A stretch of DNA of 64,000 nt from an uncultured Chloroflexia bacterium (GTDB lineage: Bacteria; Chloroflexota; Limnocylindria; Limnocylindrales; CSP1-4): the NCBI GenBank assembly GCA_963776395.1, contig CAVZML010000006.1:197312-261311 (forward strand), written 5' to 3'. Shown in pieces: positions 14,675 through 21,853 of this stretch. A program made the position numbers and the translations under genes. The notes under the pieces are model-generated. The model ran no database searches, had not been told where the DNA came from, and saw only the letters and a list, made by a program, of their open reading frames with translations. Each line of letters begins with the position of its first letter. Positions within the stretch are counted from its first letter, which is position 1.

Positions 14675-15271
14675 TTACTTGACGAGCGTGCCGTCGGCGC
14701 CGACGACGTACCACTTGCCGCCAAGACCCTGGCCGGTCACGTCTCCCGCGGCCTTGTCGCCGGCGAAGCGGTAGAGCGGCAGCCCGTGGAAGGTCACCTG
14801 GGCGGAGCCGTCGTCACGGGTGATCGTGTCGAAGGCGGCGGCGTCGAGGCCGGTTCCGAGCACCGGTGCCGCCGCACCCGCGAGGGGCGGCCACTTGGCG
14901 GCGCAGTCGCCGGTGCAGGCTGACGTCCCGCCGGAATCCGCGGTGAAGACGTAGAGGGTCAGGCCCGCACCATCGACCAGCACCGTGCCCAGCGAGGTGT
15001 CGCCGAGATTGACCTCGGCCGCTGTCGTGGCGGGTGCCGGCGTGGCCTCTGCCGCACCGTAGCCTCCCTTGCCGCCGCCTGCAGCCGGCGCCGGGGTCGC
15101 AGCCGGCGCCGAGGAGGTCGCAGCCGTCGCCGGGGTCGCAGCCGGCGCCGAGGAGGTCGCAGCCGTGGCCTGGGTGCCGGTCGACCCGGCGCCGCTGCCG
15201 CTCGAGCAGGCACCGAGGGCGGCGCCCAGCAACAGGAACAGCAGGAGAGTGACGGATCGGGAAGGTCGCAT
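14675..15271 (-). CDS. Secreted lipoprotein with COG4315-type repeats
   Basis: There is a signal peptide with lipobox LGAC. The C-terminal repeats (LYVFTADSGGTSACTGDCAAKWPP, GLPLYRFAGDKAAGDVTGQG) match this family. I preferred the start at the second Met (MRPSRS); the ORF track begins at 15304. Confidence 0.7.
   Translation of the reverse strand: MRPSRSVTLLLFLLLGAALGACSSGSGAGSTGTQATAATSSAPAATPATAATSSAPAATPAPAAGGGKGGYGAAEATPAPATTAAEVNLGDTSLGTVLVDGAGLTLYVFTADSGGTSACTGDCAAKWPPLAGAAAPVLGTGLDAAAFDTITRDDGSAQVTFHGLPLYRFAGDKAAGDVTGQGLGGKWYVVGADGTLVK
15090..15167. repeat. 39-nt perfect tandem duplication in the lipoprotein linker
   Basis: The unit gccggggtcgcagccggcgccgaggaggtcgcagccgt occurs twice. 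It is in frame and gives a duplicated 13-aa Ala/Thr/Pro/Ser stretch. Confidence 0.8.
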
Positions 15272-15412
15272 CGCTGGATCTCCTGGTCGGTGGCTCATTG
15301 GCAAGGACGGTTACGCCCCGGCGCCTCGCGTGGTTTCAGGTCCGCGTTCGCGCCGACCGGCCGCCGGCCCTCCGTCACGAACCCGAAAGGCTCCGCACGG
15401 CAGGATCGGGGC

Positions 15413-15733
15413 ATGAACAACACCGACAACGGACGCACGCTGGCCCGGTCCCGCGCCAACAGGCGTCTGCGCAACCTCACGATCGGGACCGCAGCGTTCG
15501 GCATCGCCGCAACGGGCAGCCTCGGCTGGCTGGCGGCGATGAGCTACGACGGGTCCACCTCCGTCGCCACGACCGCCGTCGCCGGCACGACCGCGGACTC
15601 GTCGACGACCACGGCGACGGCTGCGACCCCGACGCCTGCGACCACGACGACGTCGGCCGGCGCGGCAGCCACGGCGGCACCGGTCGTGACGACGACGAGC
15701 GGAACCGGCCACGCGACCACGGGCGGCTCATGA
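15413..15733 (+). CDS. Membrane-anchored mini-protein 1 (106 aa), C-terminal GHATTGGS
   Basis: ATG at 15413. The protein has a basic N-terminus, one hydrophobic helix, a Thr/Ala-rich spacer and the tail GHATTGGS. Its stop lies 1 nt before the apbE GTG. A paralogue is at 20997-21353. Confidence 0.55.
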   Translation: MNNTDNGRTLARSRANRRLRNLTIGTAAFGIAATGSLGWLAAMSYDGSTSVATTAVAGTTADSSTTTATAATPTPATTTTSAGAAATAAPVVTTTSGTGHATTGGS

Positions 15734-15734
15734 C

Positions 15735-16701
15735 GTGAGCGGCGCTGCCCGTGAAGGGATACAGCAGGCGGACTGGCGGGCACTCGGGACGGGTGCCCGT
15801 CTCGTCGTCCTCGACGGCGACCTCCAGGCCGCGCGGGTCGCGGTGGAGCGGGTCCTGGCCGAGGTCGACCTGGCGTACTCCAGGTTCCGCCCGGACTCGG
15901 AGCTGATGACGCTCCACGCATCGCGCGGCCGACAGCGTGCCCGTGAGCCCGCTCCTCGCCAGGGCCGTGGCCGGCTCGCTCGCCGCGGCCCGACGGTCCG
16001 GCGGCGCCGTCGACCCGACGGTCGGACGCGCCCTCCGCGTCATCGGCTACGACGCCGACTTCGGCATCCTCGCCGGCACGACGCGCGAGCTGGAGCTCCG
16101 TGTCGCGGCAGTGCCCGGCTGGTCGACCATCACGCTCGACCCGAAGTCCCGCATGCTCCTGATCCCGCGCGACGTGGAGCTGGACCTCGGATCCACCGGC
16201 AAGGGCCTCGCGGCCGACCTGGCTGCGGCAGCCGCCCTGGACGCGGCCGGGGACGATGCGGGCGTGCTCGTCAGCCTCGGCGGCGACATCGCCACGGGCG
16301 GCAGGGCGCCCGAGGGCGGCTGGCGGATCCTCCTCGCCGAGGACAGCGGCCGACCGTCGAACGGTGACGGCGACATGATCGCGATCCAGACCGGCGGGAT
16401 CGCGACCTCCAGCACCACGGTGCGGCGCTGGGGGACCACCGACGGCGTGACCGTCCACCACATCATCGACCCCCGAACCGGCATCCATGCCGATACGCCA
16501 TGGCGGGCCGCCACCGTGGTCGCCGCGACCTGCGAGGAGGCGAACGCCGCCTCCACCGCCGCCATCGTCCTCGGCGCCGAGGCGCCAGCGTGGATCGCGG
16601 CCACCGGCCTGCCCGCCCGCCTCGTCGCGAACGACGGCAGCGTGACGTACCTCTGCGGCTGGCCGGCGCCCTCCGCGACCACGGCGATGACCGGCGCGTA
16701 A
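15735..16701 (+). pseudogene. apbE: FAD:protein FMN transferase (ApbE), one +1 frameshift near 15936
   Basis: ApbE-type motifs are present: FRPDSELM, DPTVG, DLGSTGKGLAAD, IATSSTT, HHIIDPRTG. The first roughly 67 codons are in ORF 15735.. and the rest in ORF 15937..16701. Removing one nucleotide in cgacagcgtgcc restores ...GRQVPVSPLL.... Confidence 0.85.
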
Positions 16702-16714
16702 CCGGACCGAAAGG
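16696..16714 (+). promoter_or_regulatory. Cluster-specific motif GCGTAACCGGACCGAAAGG
   Basis: This site matches 20956-20974 (gcgtaaccggatcgaaagg) at 18 of 19 positions. A partial copy is at 15373-15390, and an inverted GCGTAACCG is at 15309-15317. All lie in leaders of genes of the same cluster. Confidence 0.35.
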
Positions 16715-16801
16715 TGCCGGCCGGGACACTGGGCGGGTAACCGAAACGCGTGGAACCGGCCGGTCGCCGGTCCTGCGCCGCCCAGCGAGGAGGAACCCGA
16801 A

Positions 16802-17395
16802 ATGTTCGACCAGGTCCTGTGGTTCGCCACACGTGGCGCCGGAGCCGTGTCGCTGCTCATGTTCACGGCGTCGGCCGCCCTCGGGCTCGTGACGGTGGTC
16901 CGCTTCCAGGCCGCCGGCTGGCCCCGGTTCTTCAACTACGAGATGCACCGTCGCGTGTCCCTGCTCTCGATCGCATTCCTCGGCGTCCACGTGCTGACCG
17001 CCGTCCTCGACCCGTTCACGAGCCTGGGCATCGGTGCGGCCCTGGTGCCGCTCGCCTCCACCTACCGGCCGCTTCCCGTGGCCCTCGGCGTGATCGCGCT
17101 CTACCTGTTCGTCGCGCTGATCGCGTCGAGCCTGCTCCGCAGGCGCATCGGTCAGCGCGCCTGGCGGGCGATCCACTGGACGAGCTATGCCATGTGGCCC
17201 CTCGCCCTCCTGCACGGGATCACCGCCGGTACCGACGCATTCACGCCCTGGATGATCGCGGTCGACCTGGTCGCCATGGCCGTCGTCACGGCAGCCCTCG
17301 GCTGGCGGATCGCCGCGGGCAACCCGAACCGCACGCGACTGCCCGAGGTTGTCGCCTCCTCCTCCTGGCAGGCCGCCCGGAGCGACGGACGATGA
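16802..17395 (+). CDS. Ferric-reductase-like (FRD/MsrQ-type) transmembrane haem-b protein
   Basis: 197 aa with 5-6 predicted helices. Two His pairs are spaced 13-14 residues apart (EMH..GVH and AIH..LLH), as in bis-haem FRD domains. Confidence 0.75.
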   Translation: MFDQVLWFATRGAGAVSLLMFTASAALGLVTVVRFQAAGWPRFFNYEMHRRVSLLSIAFLGVHVLTAVLDPFTSLGIGAALVPLASTYRPLPVALGVIALYLFVALIASSLLRRRIGQRAWRAIHWTSYAMWPLALLHGITAGTDAFTPWMIAVDLVAMAVVTAALGWRIAAGNPNRTRLPEVVASSSWQAARSDGR

Positions 17396-18633
17396 CGGCG
17401 CGCCTGCTCGCGGGTCCCGCCCTCACCGCCGGCCCGGAGACGCTCGCAAGCCACCTGGCACGGCTCGGCCCCGTTCCTGGTGCGCGCGAGGCTCGCGCGA
17501 TCCCCCAGGTCCTCGAGGCGGCGGGCCTGCTCGGTCGCGGCGGCGCGGGGTTCCCGGTCGGACGCAAGTGGGCCTCCGTTGCCGACCGCTCCGAGGGTCG
17601 CGCCGTGGTCCTCGCCAACGGTGCCGAGGGCGAGCCGCTGAGCGCGAAGGACCGCGCGCTGATGGGCACCCGCCCGCACCTGGTGCTCGATGGCGCGGAG
17701 CTGGCGGCCGCGGCCGTGGGTGCCGAGCGGATCGTCCTCTACGTCGGGTCCGAGCATCATGCCGCGCGGGCGGCGCTCGGGCGGGCGATGGGTGAGCGCA
17801 CGGCCGACACCCGCCGATCGGCCACCCGCGTCCCGATCGAGCTCGTCGCGGCCCCACCGACCTACGTCGCGGGCGAGGAGTCGGCGGCGGTCCACTTCAT
17901 CAACGACGGGGACGCACGGCCGACCGCCACGCCGCCCCGGCCGTTCGAGCGCGGCATCGACGGCCGCCCGACCCTGGTCCAGAACGTCGAGAGCCTCGCC
18001 CACGCGGCGCTGATCGCCCGGTACGGGGACCGGTGGTATCGCGACGCGGGCCGGGCCGGCACCCGGGGCACCGCGCTGATCACGGTCGGCGGGGTGCCGA
18101 TGCCGGGCGTCGCCGAGATCGAGATCGGAACCACCCTCGCGGAGGTGGCGCAGACCACCGGGGCGCCGGTCGGCGGGGGTCCGGTGCTGCTGGGCGGCTA
18201 CTTCGGTGGCTGGGTCTCCGGCGCGTCCGCGTGGCGGACACCCCTCGACCCGCATGAGCTGCGTGCGGCGGGCTCCGCGTTCGGCTGTGGCGTGGTCCGG
18301 TTCCTGGGCCCCGACGAATGTGGCGTCCGCGCGACCGCGCTGATCCTCGACTTCATGGCCGGGCAGAGCGCCGCCCAGTGCGGCCCCTGCGTCTTCGGCC
18401 TGCGGGCAATCGCGGATGCGACGGCGCGCCTCGCCCAGGGAGCGGCGCGTGGTGACGACCTCCGCCGTGTCGATGGGTGGTCGCAGACGCTCGCGGGCCG
18501 GGGCGCCTGCCGCCACCCGGACGGTGCGGTCGGTCTCCTGCGCAGCGCCCTTGCCACGTTCGACGGCGACTTCGTCTCGCACCAGCGCGGTCGCGGCTGC
18601 ACGGCGGGACGCGGCGCCTGGGCAGCCGCATGA
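17392..18633 (+). CDS. NuoF-like NAD(P)H-binding Fe-S protein (SLBB / NADH_4Fe-4S type)
   Basis: GRGGAGFPVGRKW, NGAEGEPLSAKDR and the C-terminal Cys motif QCGPC...GACRHPDG resemble the complex I 51-kDa subunit. ATGA start/stop overlaps are present at both ends of the gene. Confidence 0.75.
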   Translation: MTARLLAGPALTAGPETLASHLARLGPVPGAREARAIPQVLEAAGLLGRGGAGFPVGRKWASVADRSEGRAVVLANGAEGEPLSAKDRALMGTRPHLVLDGAELAAAAVGAERIVLYVGSEHHAARAALGRAMGERTADTRRSATRVPIELVAAPPTYVAGEESAAVHFINDGDARPTATPPRPFERGIDGRPTLVQNVESLAHAALIARYGDRWYRDAGRAGTRGTALITVGGVPMPGVAEIEIGTTLAEVAQTTGAPVGGGPVLLGGYFGGWVSGASAWRTPLDPHELRAAGSAFGCGVVRFLGPDECGVRATALILDFMAGQSAAQCGPCVFGLRAIADATARLAQGAARGDDLRRVDGWSQTLAGRGACRHPDGAVGLLRSALATFDGDFVSHQRGRGCTAGRGAWAAA

Positions 18634-18959
18634 GCGCCCCCGCTTCCTTGGCCGCCGGCATGTCCGACCGGACGATCGTGATCGACCGCATCGCCTGCGA
18701 CGGCTACGGCACGTGCGCGGAGCTGCTGCCGGAGATGATCGCGCTCGACGACTGGGGTTATCCCATCATCCGTCCGGGACCCGTCCCGGACGCCCTGCTC
18801 GGGCACGCCCGCATGGCGGTCGACACGTGCCCGGTGCTGGCGCTGCGCCTCGTGGCCGTCGCCCGTGCGACCATGGCGCCGGCGACCAATGCCGGGTCGG
18901 CAGCCGTCCGCGCGGGTGGCCCCGCCCGCGAGCAACGGTCGATCGGGCGCGGAGGCTGA
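18630..18959 (+). CDS. Small single-cluster ferredoxin
   Basis: IDRIACDGYGTCAELLPE...DTCPVLAL shows the Cx5C...CP pattern of mono-cluster ferredoxins. Its start overlaps the preceding stop (ATGA). Confidence 0.65.
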   Translation: MSAPASLAAGMSDRTIVIDRIACDGYGTCAELLPEMIALDDWGYPIIRPGPVPDALLGHARMAVDTCPVLALRLVAVARATMAPATNAGSAAVRAGGPAREQRSIGRGG

Positions 18960-18963
18960 CGGG

Positions 18964-19632
18964 ATGCGCGTGCTGGTGGCGGAAGACGACGAGGGCCTCC
19001 GGGAGGTCCTGGTCCTCGGCCTGTCCGACGCGGGCTACCACGTCGACGCGGTCGATCGCGGGGACGACGCCATCGACTACCTGAAGTGGTACGAGTACGA
19101 CGTCGCCGTGATCGACTGGCGCATGCCGGGGGCCGAGGGCGTCGACGTCGTCTCCTGGGCCCGCAAGCACGACCGACCGACGGCCCTCCTCATGCTCACG
19201 GCACGGGACACCCCCGCCGACCGGATCCGGGGCCTCGATTCCGGCGCCGACGACTACCTGGTCAAGCCGTTCGACTTCGGCGAGCTGCTCGCACGCGTGC
19301 GTGCCCTCCAGCGCCGGCCCCGTGGCGTGGACGCCCCCGTGCTCGGCGTCGGGCGCCTGACGCTGGACCCGGTCGCTCGCCTCGTCGCCGTCGGCGGACG
19401 GGAGCTCTCCCTGACGAGCACCGAGTACCGGATCCTGGAGCTGCTGATGCGCCGCGCGTCGGCCGTCGTGGACCGCAAGGCCATCGCCGAGCACGCCTGG
19501 GCCGACGAGACGGAGCCGCTCGGCTCGAACGCGATCGACGTCCAGATGAGCCGCCTGCGCGGGAAGCTGTCCGGCGCCGGAGTCCAGATCGTCACCGTGC
19601 GCGGCGCAGGCTATCGCCTCGAGGCCGTGTAG
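18964..19632 (+). CDS. OmpR/PhoB-family response regulator
   Basis: The receiver domain carries MRVLVAEDD...DVAVIDWRMPG. The winged-helix output domain carries LTSTEYRILELL...VRGAGYRL. Confidence 0.9.
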   Translation: MRVLVAEDDEGLREVLVLGLSDAGYHVDAVDRGDDAIDYLKWYEYDVAVIDWRMPGAEGVDVVSWARKHDRPTALLMLTARDTPADRIRGLDSGADDYLVKPFDFGELLARVRALQRRPRGVDAPVLGVGRLTLDPVARLVAVGGRELSLTSTEYRILELLMRRASAVVDRKAIAEHAWADETEPLGSNAIDVQMSRLRGKLSGAGVQIVTVRGAGYRLEAV

Positions 19633-19634
19633 GC

Positions 19635-20867
19635 GTGTCTCACGTCCCCGGCGTCCGCCGCCAGTCGATCCGTGTCGCGCTCGCCGCGACCGGCGTCGTG
19701 GCCGTCGTGTATCTCGCCGTGGGCGTCAGCGTCGTCGCGTACGTGACCCGCGACCTCACGGCCCAGATCGACAACCGGCTGACCGCGTCCTTCGGCCGCC
19801 TGCCGCCCGATGGGCGGCACCCGGACTCCCCGTTCGACCCCGGTCGTGACCCGGGGCGGCCGTTCGGCGCTCCGCTCCTGGTGTGGACGATCGAGCCCGG
19901 CGGCCTGGTCCTCGCCTCGGCGTCGACGCCGGACCTGCCGGCGAAGCTCGCGAACGTCACCGATCCGGTGACGGCCACGATCGACGGCACGGAGGTCCGG
20001 GTCGCGGGCGTGCGGGTGGGCGACGACCGCGTCGTGGTCGCCCAGGCGACCGACGCGGTGACCGACGCCCAGCGGACGCTCCTCGTCGGCTGGCTGCTCG
20101 TCGCACCGATCCTGCTGGCGTCGGTGTTCTTCGGTGCCGTGGCCATCGGTCGGCGCGTCGCGGCCCCGATCGAGGCCGCGCGGCGTCGCCAGCTGGAGTT
20201 CACGGCGGACGCCTCGCACGAGCTGCGCACGCCGCTGTCCGTGATCGAGGCGCACACCTCTCTCGCCCTGGCCCAGCCGCGCGACGAGGCCTGGTACCGG
20301 TCGGCGTTCGGGCGAGTGGACCGCGAGTCGAAGCGGATGCGGCGGCTGCTCGACGACATGCTGTGGCTCGCCCGGTTCGACGCGTCGCAGGCATCGCCCT
20401 CCAGCGAGCCCGTCGATCTCGGCGTCCTCGTGAACCAGGCCGCCGACCGGTTCGGCGTCGTCGCGGAGGCGCGGCAGCTGTCGCTCGGTGTCCATGTCCC
20501 GGCGACACCGACGGTCATCGCCGCGTCGCCGGAGCTGGTCGACCGCCTCGTCGGCGTCCTGCTCGACAACGCCTGCAAGTACGCCCCGGAGGGCGGAGCG
20601 GTGGACGTCACCGTCACGGGGGAGGGCCACCGGGCGACGTTGACCGTCGACGACTCGGGGCCCGGCATCGCCGCCGAGGACCGGGACCGGATCTTCGACC
20701 GCTTCCACCGCTCGGTCGCGACCTCGAGCGAGGCCGGCGGTGCGGGCCTCGGCCTCGCGATCGGCGATGCCATCGTTCGTGCGACCGGCGGTCGGTGGGC
20801 GGTCGGCTCGTCGCCGTCAGGGGGCGCCCGGTTCGCGGTGGCCTGGAGCCGCACCACCCTCGACTGA
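19635..20867 (+). CDS. Sensor histidine kinase
   Basis: GTG start 3 nt after the response-regulator stop. There are two TM helices flanking a roughly 110-aa external loop. H-box ASHELRTPLS, N-box LLDNACKY and G-boxes DDSGPGI and GGAGLGLAI are present. Confidence 0.9.
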   Translation: MSHVPGVRRQSIRVALAATGVVAVVYLAVGVSVVAYVTRDLTAQIDNRLTASFGRLPPDGRHPDSPFDPGRDPGRPFGAPLLVWTIEPGGLVLASASTPDLPAKLANVTDPVTATIDGTEVRVAGVRVGDDRVVVAQATDAVTDAQRTLLVGWLLVAPILLASVFFGAVAIGRRVAAPIEAARRRQLEFTADASHELRTPLSVIEAHTSLALAQPRDEAWYRSAFGRVDRESKRMRRLLDDMLWLARFDASQASPSSEPVDLGVLVNQAADRFGVVAEARQLSLGVHVPATPTVIAASPELVDRLVGVLLDNACKYAPEGGAVDVTVTGEGHRATLTVDDSGPGIAAEDRDRIFDRFHRSVATSSEAGGAGLGLAIGDAIVRATGGRWAVGSSPSGGARFAVAWSRTTLD

Positions 20868-20887: not shown

Positions 20888-20970
20888 CGTCACTGCCCTG
20901 CGTCACTCGGGGCCCGTCACTCGGGCGGCGTCACTCGCGACCCGTGACTCGGGCGGCGTAACCGGATCGA
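20888..20970. repeat. 14-bp tandem array (about 6 units, CGTCACTCGGGnnn)
   Basis: CGT(C/G/A)AC units start at 20888, 20901, 20915, 20929, 20943 and 20957. The array lies between the kinase stop and mini-protein 2, and its last unit runs into the GCGTAACCGGATCGAAAGG motif. Confidence 0.8.
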
Positions 20971-20996
20971 AAGGATCCGGACCCGAGACTCGGCGA

Positions 20997-21353
20997 ATGG
21001 ACATCCACGATCAATCTTCCGCCGCCGCGCGCGGCGACGCGCTGATCCGCCTCCGGACCGTGACGGCCGGCGTGGCGGTCGTCGCAGTCGCGGCGACCGC
21101 CGGTCTCGGCTTCGCCGCCGCAAGCGGTTATCGCGGGACGACTCCCGCGACTGATCCGTCGCTTCCATCGGCCACGCAGGCCCCGGCCGACCAGCCGGCC
21201 TCCGGGACCGGCGGATCCTCATCGGGCGGCCAGCCGCAGCAGCTCGCCCCCCAGGACGGCGGGTTCTCGGCGCCGGCTCCGGGCACGCTCCTGCAGCCCC
21301 CCAGCCGCACCAACGGCGGCCGCGGCGGCCACGCGACCACGGGCGGATCCTGA
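20997..21353 (+). CDS. Membrane-anchored mini-protein 2 (118 aa), C-terminal GHATTGGS
   Basis: It has the same architecture as 15413-15733. The final 20 nt of coding sequence before gg(a/c)tc(c/a)tga are identical to paralogue 1. Its stop overlaps the ATG of the GtrA-like gene. Confidence 0.55.
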   Translation: MDIHDQSSAAARGDALIRLRTVTAGVAVVAVAATAGLGFAAASGYRGTTPATDPSLPSATQAPADQPASGTGGSSSGGQPQQLAPQDGGFSAPAPGTLLQPPSRTNGGRGGHATTGGS

Positions 21354-21853
21354 TGACAACCCGGGCACGATCCCGGGTCCGCCTGGGGCGCCAGGCGCTG
21401 GTCTTCGGGTCGATCGGCGTGGTGAGCACGGCCGCCTACGCGGTGCTGTTCCTGGCATTTCGGACGGTGGCCGGGGCTGTCGTCGCGAACGCCATCGCGC
21501 TCGTCGTCACCGCAATCGGCAACACTGCCGCGAACCGCCGGTTCACGTTCGGCGTCCGGGACGGCAGGTCGATGGTCAGGGACCAGGTCGGCGGTCTGAT
21601 CGCCCTCGCCGTCGCGCTCGCGATCACCACCACGTTCGCCAACCTGTTGGCTGTGCTCGCCCCCGGTGCCGGACGCTACGTCGAGCTGGCCGTCCTCGTC
21701 GTCGCCAACGCGATCGCCACCGTGGCCCGCTTCCTCCTCCTCCGCGCCTGGATCACACAGGACCGGCGATCCATGCCGCTTCCGCCGGCGTCCGCCCGCT
21801 TCGCGAGCACGGATACGCAAACCCGCCGCATCGGCGTGCGACGCGGCGGGTGA
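21353..21853 (+). CDS. GtrA-like family membrane protein
   Basis: 166 aa with four helices. [16 protein letters not shown] and [10 protein letters not shown] are typical GtrA-family segments. Confidence 0.7.

Follow-up and report, generated by a model that had tools for sequence, protein, structure and literature searches.

What does a membrane-anchored protein of about 100 residues do when it has no recognizable domain, ends in a short conserved peptide and is encoded directly ahead of a gene for a flavin transferase? The question is raised by a 64,000-nt stretch of contig CAVZML010000006.1 (hereafter the window; 72% G+C) from an uncultured Chloroflexia bacterium belonging to the Limnocylindria, an abundant soil and freshwater lineage known mainly from metagenome-assembled genomes (MAGs). 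The window encodes two such proteins, A (15413-15733, + strand, 106 residues) and B (20997-21353, + strand, 118 residues), both of which end in GHATTGGS followed by a TGA stop codon. A is coupled to a gene of the ApbE family (FAD:protein FMN transferase; FAD, flavin adenine dinucleotide; FMN, flavin mononucleotide), and B is coupled to a gene of the GtrA family. To our knowledge, in all accepted natural substrates of ApbE the Ser or Thr that is flavinylated belongs to a folded protein or is docked onto one, and the sufficiency of a bare peptide is known from protein engineering only. From the analysis of the two genes, their relatives and their surroundings, we lean, by a narrow preference, towards the reading that A and B are domain-less ApbE substrates, with a tethered flavin as the outer acceptor of a chain leading from NADH (reduced nicotinamide adenine dinucleotide) to an MsrQ-like cytochrome.

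Two small genes of one family

Protein A consists of a basic N-terminus, a transmembrane helix (residues 22-43; 15476-15541, + strand), a Thr/Ala/Ser spacer and the tail HATTGGS directly before the stop codon. B has one transmembrane helix (residues 22-42; 21060-21122, + strand), a spacer rich in Pro, Gln, Gly and Ser, and the same tail (21330-21350, + strand). An earlier reading of this DNA (hereafter the sequence-only reading) had described the two as paralogues with one hydrophobic helix each and an identical GHATTGGS end, and this description is borne out, as both match one family hidden Markov model (HMM), A with an E value of 1.5e-26 and B with 7.1e-21. The basic N-terminus that it had assigned to both proteins is strong in A, where the 20 residues ahead of the helix have a net charge of +5, and weak in B (+1). 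The translational coupling that it had noted for both genes is also evident, the junction between the stop codon of A and the start codon of apbE being TGAcGTG and that between B and gtrA being TGATG, with an overlap of 1 nt. In a six-frame translation of the window, the pattern H[AG]T[TS]GG[ST] was confined to the tails of A and B. Pfam and NCBIfam gave no family for A at E ≤ 0.01; B had no Pfam family, and its only NCBIfam match, to PepSY_MTB, was sub-threshold (16 bits against a cut-off of 60).

The window has many long spurious open reading frames (ORFs) in all frames, and A and B might on this ground be taken for spurious ORFs of GC-rich DNA, with the DNA string shared by their ends as a non-coding repeat. 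The comparative data refute this explanation, to which we attach a negligible probability. The G+C content at third codon positions, read in frame, is 0.90 in A and 0.85 in B, which fits real coding sequence in a window of this composition. Furthermore, there are hundreds of homologues in which the N-terminus and the tail are conserved with synonymous codon differences, the position in the operon is fixed, and a conserved element lies exactly 39 nt ahead of the ATG.

Word-index searches returned 37 relatives of A and 3 of B. A profile built from these relatives was then searched against 1.84 billion proteins, which yielded 428 cluster representatives at a threshold of E ≤ 1e-3 and 138 at the stricter E ≤ 1e-10. 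Source names were given for few of the relatives and were Candidatus Limnocylindrales, Chloroflexota and "uncultured Chloroflexia". The literature searched contained neither a link of ApbE to Limnocylindria nor a description of such a tail family. The family to which A and B belong has not been described before; its members are single-pass membrane proteins about 90-130 residues long. The conserved tail recurs in homologues from Chloroflexota/Limnocylindria, for which the sequence-only reading had proposed a search, and the neighbours of these homologues were recorded (see below).

The tail is in register with the ApbE recognition heptad

The tail could be aligned in 158 of the 182 family proteins; the other 24 were mostly truncated or frameshifted gene calls. 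It reads [H/Q]-[A/V]-[S/T]-[S/T]-G-G-S followed by zero to two residues, and when the final Ser of this heptad is counted as position 0, the protein ends there in 117 members and carries one or two extra residues in the rest. Position 0 is Ser in 157 members, including A and B, and Thr in one. Position −1 is Gly in 148, Ser in 7 and Ala in 3, and position −2 is Gly in all 158. Thr (113) or Ser (43) occupies position −3 in 156 of the 158, and Thr or Ser position −4. Position −5 is Ala (79) or Val (72), whereas position −6 is mostly His (120), followed by Gln (23) and Arg (6), and never Asp; the 38 members without His have Gln, Arg, Val, Ala, Asn or Pro. Further upstream, Gly is found at −9 and Ala or Gly at −7. 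No other part of the protein is as well conserved as the tail among the more than 150 divergent members, in agreement with the weight that the sequence-only reading had given to it.

The minimal recognition sequence of ApbE is the heptad D-x-x-[S/T]-G-A-[S/T], the last residue of which receives FMN, and it works best at a protein terminus (PMC12052999). The family heptad is in register with this motif, and its variable positions coincide with the two x positions. Ser or Thr at −3, Gly at −2 and a Ser or Thr acceptor at 0 agree with the motif, and three family proteins (P0066, P0104 and P0141) have canonical SGAS or TGAS at the tail position. In A, the candidate flavinylation heptad H-A-T-T-G-G-S is encoded at 15710-15730 (+ strand), and the C-terminal Ser106 is the proposed FMN acceptor. 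The sequence-only reading had stated that the tail resembles the ApbE site without matching it; the mismatches at −6 and −1 stand, but the resemblance is closer than was thought because the whole heptad is in register. None of the known ApbE substrate domains (FMN_bind PF04205, DUF2271, DUF3570, NqrB/RnfD, Flavodoxin_4 and FMN_red) was matched by A or B.

The DNA that encodes the two tails was also compared. A and B share an identical string of 21 nt (15706-15726 and 21326-21346), one more than the 20 nt first reported, and this string is absent elsewhere in the window on both strands. Under the codon usage of the window, the probability of identical codons for G-H-A-T-T-G is approximately 0.011. 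In five other genomes with both copies, however, the tails are encoded by different codons, and the longest string common to A and B is 0-13 nt. The 21-nt identity is thus peculiar to this genome and could be due to chance or to a small local gene conversion. Selection on the tail at the nucleotide level is ruled out by the different codons in the five genomes, and the argument for selection that had been drawn from nucleotide conservation fails with it. Judged from its conservation across genomes with synonymous variation, it is the tail peptide on which selection acts.

Predicted topology and disorder of the family proteins

The family has one constant architecture: the motif R-x-R-A-x-x-R-L-R-x-[LM]-T-I-G-T at the N-terminus, one hydrophobic segment, a spacer of low complexity and the conserved tail. 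Within the N-terminal motif, R12 and R18-L19 are invariant, and position 17 is Arg or Lys in part of the family only; many members read A-R-L-R, Q-R-L-R or G-R-L-R at this site, and B reads I-R-L-R. A family-wide twin-arginine translocation (Tat) signal was considered on account of the Tat-like N-terminus (RRLRNL...) and rejected, as a twin arginine before the hydrophobic stretch is not conserved. When the 20 residues on each side of the helix were compared, the N-terminal side was more positively charged than the C-terminal side in 181 of 181 members (medians, +4 and −1), and a second hydrophobic segment was found in none of them. The spacer has 39-97 residues, 72% of which are Thr, Ala, Ser, Gly or Pro (23% Thr and 14% Ser). 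The AlphaFold2 model computed for A with the family alignment showed a helix at residues 7-43 and disorder in the remainder (mean predicted local distance difference test score, 52.6), and beyond this helix it contained no fold around the tail. The family proteins are therefore predicted, from charge bias and from the model, to be disordered tethers anchored with the N-terminus inside and the C-terminus outside (N-in/C-out). This is the signal-anchor topology, with a tail carried by no domain, that the sequence-only reading had envisaged.

Gene cluster and its conservation

In the window, the genes are arranged in the order A, apbE-like, msrQ-like, nuoF-like, ferredoxin, response regulator, histidine kinase, B and gtrA, and this order recurs in related genomes. 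The leaderless apbE-like gene (15735-16701, + strand) is coupled to A. It is followed by a gene for an MsrQ-like/ferric-reductase-like membrane cytochrome of 197 residues (16802-17395, + strand; PF01794, 1.1e-07). In an alignment of eight orthologues, this protein has four invariant His residues (H49, H63, H125 and H138), the spacing of which is that of di-haem ferric-reductase-type proteins and fits two b haems. The start codon of the next gene overlaps the msrQ-like stop codon (ATGA), and this gene encodes a NuoF-like NADH-binding FMN/[4Fe-4S] protein of 413 residues (17392-18633, + strand; PF01512, 1.6e-33; PF10589, 9.8e-15; TIGR01959, 4e-58 but below its cut-off). A small single-cluster 4Fe-4S ferredoxin (18630-18959, + strand; PF13459, 2.5e-12) is encoded next, again with a start codon overlapping the preceding stop. 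The cluster thus encodes a complete chain from electron donor to membrane.

A related-locus search with narrow alignment yielded four genome loci. A metagenome scan with a degenerate DNA pattern for the tail gave 109 matches, of which 67 were true members according to the HMM, and 64 of these had enough downstream DNA for the next gene to be read. The next gene was apbE in 47 cases (73%), msrQ-like in nine, gtrA in four, a response regulator gene in two and not recognized in two. Among 12 distinct long loci, apbE directly followed the A copy in ten, the msrQ-like gene was present in all 12, and the nuoF-like and ferredoxin genes were present in ten; msrQ-like is therefore the most constant neighbour of the family. 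Both small genes occur in the window and in loci L001, L004, L009, L012 and L021, and orthologues at the position of B were found in L001, L004, L009, L012, L017 and L021. Junctions of −4 to +1 nt between the stop codon of the small gene and the start codon of the downstream gene recur across loci. Their sequences differ (TGAcGTG, GTGA and TGATG), which indicates ordinary coupling. A programmed frameshift or readthrough from A into ApbE was also considered and rejected; followed upstream, the ApbE frame of the window closes within 15 codons.

Méheust et al. (2021, eLife; PMC8238504) found new ApbE substrates by examining the genomic context of orphan apbE clusters, and state that others are still to be identified; our reasoning from context for A and B follows the same logic. 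That paper also describes MsrQ-like flavinylation clusters, including 31 with a NuoF-like gene. By such criteria, PF01794 and apbE occur together in the window and in 10 of the 12 long loci, and the NAD(P)H module is represented by PF01512 plus PF10589. In L005, L006, L009, L012, L013, L019 and L021, the genes called within 8 kb include none for FMN_bind, DUF2271 or DUF3570, and the ORFs scanned in the window include none for an FMN-binding domain. In the six frames of the window, D-x-x-[ST]-G-A-[ST] occurs once, as DGGTGAS at about 2340 on the + strand, in a glutamate-synthase-like ORF of 1257 codons; we take this sequence to be typical of glutamate synthase and unrelated to ApbE. A canonical ApbE substrate in the vicinity was rejected on these grounds.

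The constancy of the msrQ-like gene, rather than of apbE, suggests another explanation, namely, that A and B are unmodified accessory subunits. The N-terminus and helix would then dock the MsrQ-like protein, the tail would bind a metal, the outer haem edge or a partner protein, and ApbE would serve some other substrate. This would suit the direct succession of the small gene and the msrQ-like gene in nine of the 64 metagenomic members and in L003 and L006-L008, a divergent subgroup made up of these two genes only, the prevalence of His at −6, the resemblance of the two-component system of the cluster to heavy-metal sensors, and the atypical ApbE clade, which has Asn at the Mg-binding Asp. However, the His is replaced in 38 of the 158 aligned tails, and the virtually invariant G-G-S with its preceding Ser or Thr is an ApbE-like core and not a metal site. 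In addition, apbE lies directly 3' of the tail, in translational coupling, in nearly three-quarters of the metagenomic members, and no other candidate ApbE substrate was called in any annotated locus. We therefore regard the accessory-subunit explanation as unlikely, although not far-fetched.

B and a possible glycosylation of the spacer

The gene downstream of B encodes a GtrA-family membrane protein (21353-21853, + strand; PF04138, 5.1e-08). In three other loci, gtrA is followed by a gene for a GT-C glycosyltransferase with PMT_2/YkcB_C (L009, 14381-16291; L012, 14587-16390; L005, 14993-15853). In the window, this GT-C gene is missing after gtrA, and a sigma-70 gene on the opposite strand stands there instead.

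Such neighbours would be expected if A and B were O-glycosylated, mucin-like envelope proteins, with GtrA and the GT-C enzyme glycosylating the spacer and the tail marking the protein for recognition or retention by that pathway. In the window, L009 and L012, the end of B and the start of gtrA overlap by 1 or 4 nt, the glycosyltransferase gene follows gtrA in L009 and L012, gtrA has the same upstream element as the small genes where B is absent (L003 and L005), and more than a third of the spacer residues are Thr or Ser. Nevertheless, this explanation accounts neither for the coupling of A to apbE in most genomes nor for the register of the tail with the ApbE heptad, and L019 and L020 keep the small gene with no gtrA within the sequence covered. 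Moreover, one protein could carry both glycans on its spacer and a flavin at its tip, which makes glycosylation weak as an exclusive explanation; as such, we hold it to be improbable. As gtrA and GT-C appear to be co-regulated with the cluster, O-glycosylation of the spacers, which the sequence-only reading had named as an alternative, is possible as an added modification, one that leaves the tail unexplained.

Proposed function as a domain-less ApbE substrate

The sequence-only reading had suggested a minimal, non-domain ApbE substrate with a flavin on a flexible tether, and the present analysis supports this in part. In the mechanism that we favour, the conserved basic N-terminus and the helix would anchor the protein N-in/C-out, probably against the MsrQ-like cytochrome; such docking is suggested by the conservation of the N-terminus and helix together with the presence of the cytochrome in every long locus. 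The neighbouring ApbE-family enzyme would use FAD to attach FMN to the final Ser of the heptad, which would make the protein a natural, fold-free "flavin-tag". Electrons would pass from NAD(P)H to the NuoF-like protein (FMN and 4Fe-4S), the ferredoxin, the di-haem MsrQ-like cytochrome and the tethered flavin outside, which would hand them to an outside acceptor. B would be a second substrate, often coupled to gtrA.

A protein of about 100 residues leaves the ribosome before co-translational targeting can be completed. Given the leaderless ApbE clade and the very short substrate, we infer that flavinylation would take place in the cytoplasm, where FAD is available, and that post-translational insertion and export of the tail would follow; this order of events is conceivable. 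Complete flavinylation of short terminal tags by a leaderless ApbE is known from the cytosol of E. coli (PMC9400968), and cytosolic ApbEs exist, for example in K. pneumoniae (PMC12052999).

Several observations weigh against this mechanism. The first concerns the heptad, which is non-canonical, with His and not Asp at −6 and Gly and not Ala at −1: His or Gln replaces an Asp described as "strictly conserved", and Gly replaces Ala in 148 of the 158 tails. The motif is known to be tolerant; replacement of Asp by Ala has little effect, Ser can serve as the acceptor, and the exchanges of Gly for Ala and of Ala for Val each leave approximately 50% flavinylation (PMC12052999). The effect of an Ala-to-Gly exchange at −1 was not found in the literature searched.

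The second concerns the enzyme. The apbE-like gene of the window has a one-base frame shift near 15925-15935, so that the first 65 residues are encoded in the frame of 15735 and the rest in the frame of 15937; the latter (15937-16701) matches PF02424 with 5.5e-40. Single-frame orthologues are present in L001, L002, L004, L005, L009, L013, L019 and L021, and an orthologue from the cluster matched solved structures (1vrm, 6.5e-27; 4xdt, 9.8e-19; 6nxi, 1.9e-18). As many related MAG contigs have similar breaks, an assembly error is likely, with a real defect (a pseudogene) as the alternative. The cluster ApbEs start approximately 10 residues ahead of the start of the fold (W-R-A-[LI]-G-T) and have no signal peptide; the in-frame extensions upstream of the cluster apbE genes are closed or non-hydrophobic, with no signal peptide or lipobox. 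Most characterised ApbEs act outside the cytoplasm, and the tail of A and B is likewise predicted to be outside.

The active site of these enzymes is also unusual. Of the catalytic-centre trio (Vc Ser241, His257 and Asp285), the Ser (in A-T-S-S) and the His (in H-H-[IL]-[IV]-D-P) are present, and the Asp is replaced. Asn stands at this Mg-binding Asp (Vc D285, Tp D284, Lm D301) in all 14 ApbEs from long loci that cover the site, and in 28 metagenomic cluster ApbEs the residue is Asn in 27 and Ser in one, and never Asp; in the window, the site lies at about 16560-16580, in the peptide ..CEEANAASTA... In FmnB, Ala at the Mg-binding Asp greatly reduces or abolishes activity (PMC8906456). Possibly, the clade is a subfamily that has specialised and evolved together with the atypical H-x-[ST]-[ST]-G-G-S site.

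The third concerns gene content. Two of the 12 long loci and nine of the 64 metagenomic members (about 14%) keep the tail without an adjacent apbE. Clusters that lack apbE include those of CAVYZQ01 and GCA_021815005.1. In the divergent subgroup, the small tail gene is directly followed by the msrQ-like gene only (L090, 7652-8680, and L120, 12193-13323, with the tail on the + strand; also L046, L062, L067, L093, L110, L121 and L123), and tblastn detected no apbE, nuoF-like or ferredoxin gene on the long contigs of L090 and L120. Finally, a flavin without a binding fold would be exposed to solvent and prone to autoxidation. The leaderless ApbE, its Asn, the frame break, the loci without apbE and the msrQ-only subgroup hold our confidence in the domain-less substrate only a little above an even chance. 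The more specific version, in which the leaderless Asn-type ApbE would flavinylate the heptad in the cytoplasm and a tether, possibly O-glycosylated, would then display a fold-free flavin shuttle outside, is tentative, and we think it rather less probable than not.

Comparison with known flavinylation systems

Bare peptides and folded substrates of ApbE offer partial parallels to A and B. The MsrQ-like clusters share with the present locus an apbE gene, a PF01794 di-haem membrane protein and a cytosolic NuoF-like NAD(P)H module, and hence the same logic of a cytosolic donor, a transmembrane cytochrome and a flavinylated acceptor outside, the last step being putative here. The known clusters, mainly from Actinobacteria, typically include an FMN-binding-domain protein, which takes the role of the outer acceptor. 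By contrast, the locus in Chloroflexota (Limnocylindria) has no FMN_bind gene, a fold-free protein of 90-130 residues is encoded at the head of the operon, and ApbE is leaderless with Asn at the Mg-binding Asp.

The closest parallel to a fold-free substrate is the engineered Flavin-tag (Tong, Fraaije et al.; summarized in PMC12052999 and PMC9400968). According to these accounts, a short unstructured terminal heptad suffices for full attachment of FMN, a leaderless ApbE acts in the cytosol, and the attached flavin is spectrally like free FMN. The tag described there is man-made and reads D-G-L-S-G-A-T, whereas the present family is natural and membrane-tethered, has H-[AV]-[ST]-[ST]-G-G-S and keeps its candidate acceptor Ser no more than two residues from the C-terminus.

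FMN_red proteins (Huang et al. 2024, mSystems; PMC11334425) likewise have a flavinylation site on a disordered C-terminal extension outside the FMN-bind fold. Their tail folds back onto the flavin pocket of a globular domain, whereas A and B are without a globular domain. The FMN-bind proteins of the NqrC/RnfG and PplA types have in common with the family an N-terminal membrane anchor, an extracytosolic flavinylated part (proposed here) and a role as an electron relay at the outer face. They differ in that they contain a folded FMN_bind domain (PF04205) and are flavinylated outside the cytoplasm, by an ApbE that is secreted or a lipoprotein; neither feature was found here.

If the proposed mechanism is correct, the family would be a new class of ApbE substrates and would explain part of the "orphan apbE" genomes noted by Méheust et al. 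It would imply a relaxed recognition motif, [S/T]-G-[G/A/S]-[S/T], in which the Asp is dispensable, and the production of extracytosolic flavoproteins by modification before export. A tethered-shuttle mechanism would then operate in soil and freshwater Chloroflexota (Limnocylindria), and the enzyme and heptad could yield a shorter or orthogonal tag/enzyme pair for flavin-tagging. Should flavinylation take place in the cytoplasm as outlined above, this would amount to a new design of extracytosolic electron transfer in monoderm Chloroflexota, together with the new substrate class.

A shared upstream element and regulation of the cluster

An alignment of 15 upstream regions gave the invariant columns of an element, GT[CA]AC-N6-GAAAG-N12-A-N3-T-N6, the first base of which lies exactly 39 nt ahead of the start codon in both A and B. 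Three copies are present in the window, and none other was seen there with up to one mismatch allowed. The first (GTCAC; 15374-15412, + strand) ends directly at the ATG of A, and the third (GTAAC; 20958-20996, + strand) ends directly at the ATG of B. The second (16698-16736, + strand) overlaps the stop codon of apbE, and a count of 39 nt from the first base of this copy leads to a GTG (16737), which precedes the msrQ-like ATG by 65 nt. The position of the element is kept in 16 of 21 loci (e.g. L001, L004, L005, L009, L013 and L021), and 14 of 55 metagenomic family genes have it, the distance to a start codon being 39 nt in every case. In L003 and L005, which lack B, the element stands ahead of gtrA.

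The A-N3-T part of the element falls at −11/−7 relative to the A of the ATG, as a −10 element would, which suggests leaderless transcripts for A and B. The upstream half may be a putative site for the response regulator of the cluster or for a dedicated sigma factor. Since the element is common to A, the msrQ-like gene and B/gtrA, it argues for co-regulation of the paralogues with the cytochrome module. An RNA element was also considered; a hairpin with a GAAA loop fits the B type but not the A type on manual inspection of the alignment, Rfam at its gathering threshold gave no match in the window, and the element was treated as a DNA site.

The two regulatory genes lie between the ferredoxin gene and B and encode an OmpR-family response regulator (18964-19632, + strand; Response_reg and Trans_reg_C in orthologous loci) and a sensor histidine kinase (19635-20867, + strand), the latter nearest to the CztS/SilS/CopS heavy-metal type and to RppB, both below the cut-off. 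The two-component system as a whole (18964-20867) is nearest to CztRS/SilRS/CopRS and RppAB, again below the cut-offs, which hints at a response to metal or to envelope redox stress. Because the response regulator and histidine kinase genes stand between A and B in most loci and the upstream element is shared by A, the msrQ-like gene and B/gtrA, the small proteins could also be tethered peptide ligands or redox reporters sensed by the periplasmic domain of this kinase. However, L006, L013 and L019 have the small gene with apbE and/or the msrQ-like, nuoF-like and ferredoxin genes and neither regulatory gene nearby, and the tail is unlike any known kinase ligand; we consider a ligand function highly improbable.

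Additional observations

A 14-nt tandem repeat, CGTCACTCGGGnCC, occurs in about four copies between the histidine kinase gene and B (20901-20953, + strand). The repeat contains the GTCAC core of the upstream element, and more CGTCAC copies are found just upstream. The corresponding spacer of the other genomes does not contain the repeat.

Apparent natural fusions of the anchor to ApbE (P0043, P0068 and P0107) were examined and rejected as frameshift artefacts with Arg/Pro-rich out-of-frame stretches. Together with P0022, they are catalogue "proteins" in which ApbE or Arg/Pro-rich sequence is attached to the N-terminus of the small protein, and they reflect frameshift artefacts of long-read MAG assemblies.

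In the msrQ-only subgroup, the N-terminus of the L120 protein (RRRGMRRLSALTAAVAIASAAASG..., with RRRGMRRL) is more like a cleavable Tat or Sec signal.

The closest metagenomic relatives (L029, L049, L052, L066, L094 and L096), unlike more distant ones, have a gene for a Lipoprotein_15 protein (PF03640) upstream of the small gene. In the window, it is divergent from A (14675-15304, − strand), and the Thr/Ala/Pro-rich linker of its product is encoded by 39-nt tandem repeats at 15081-15175.

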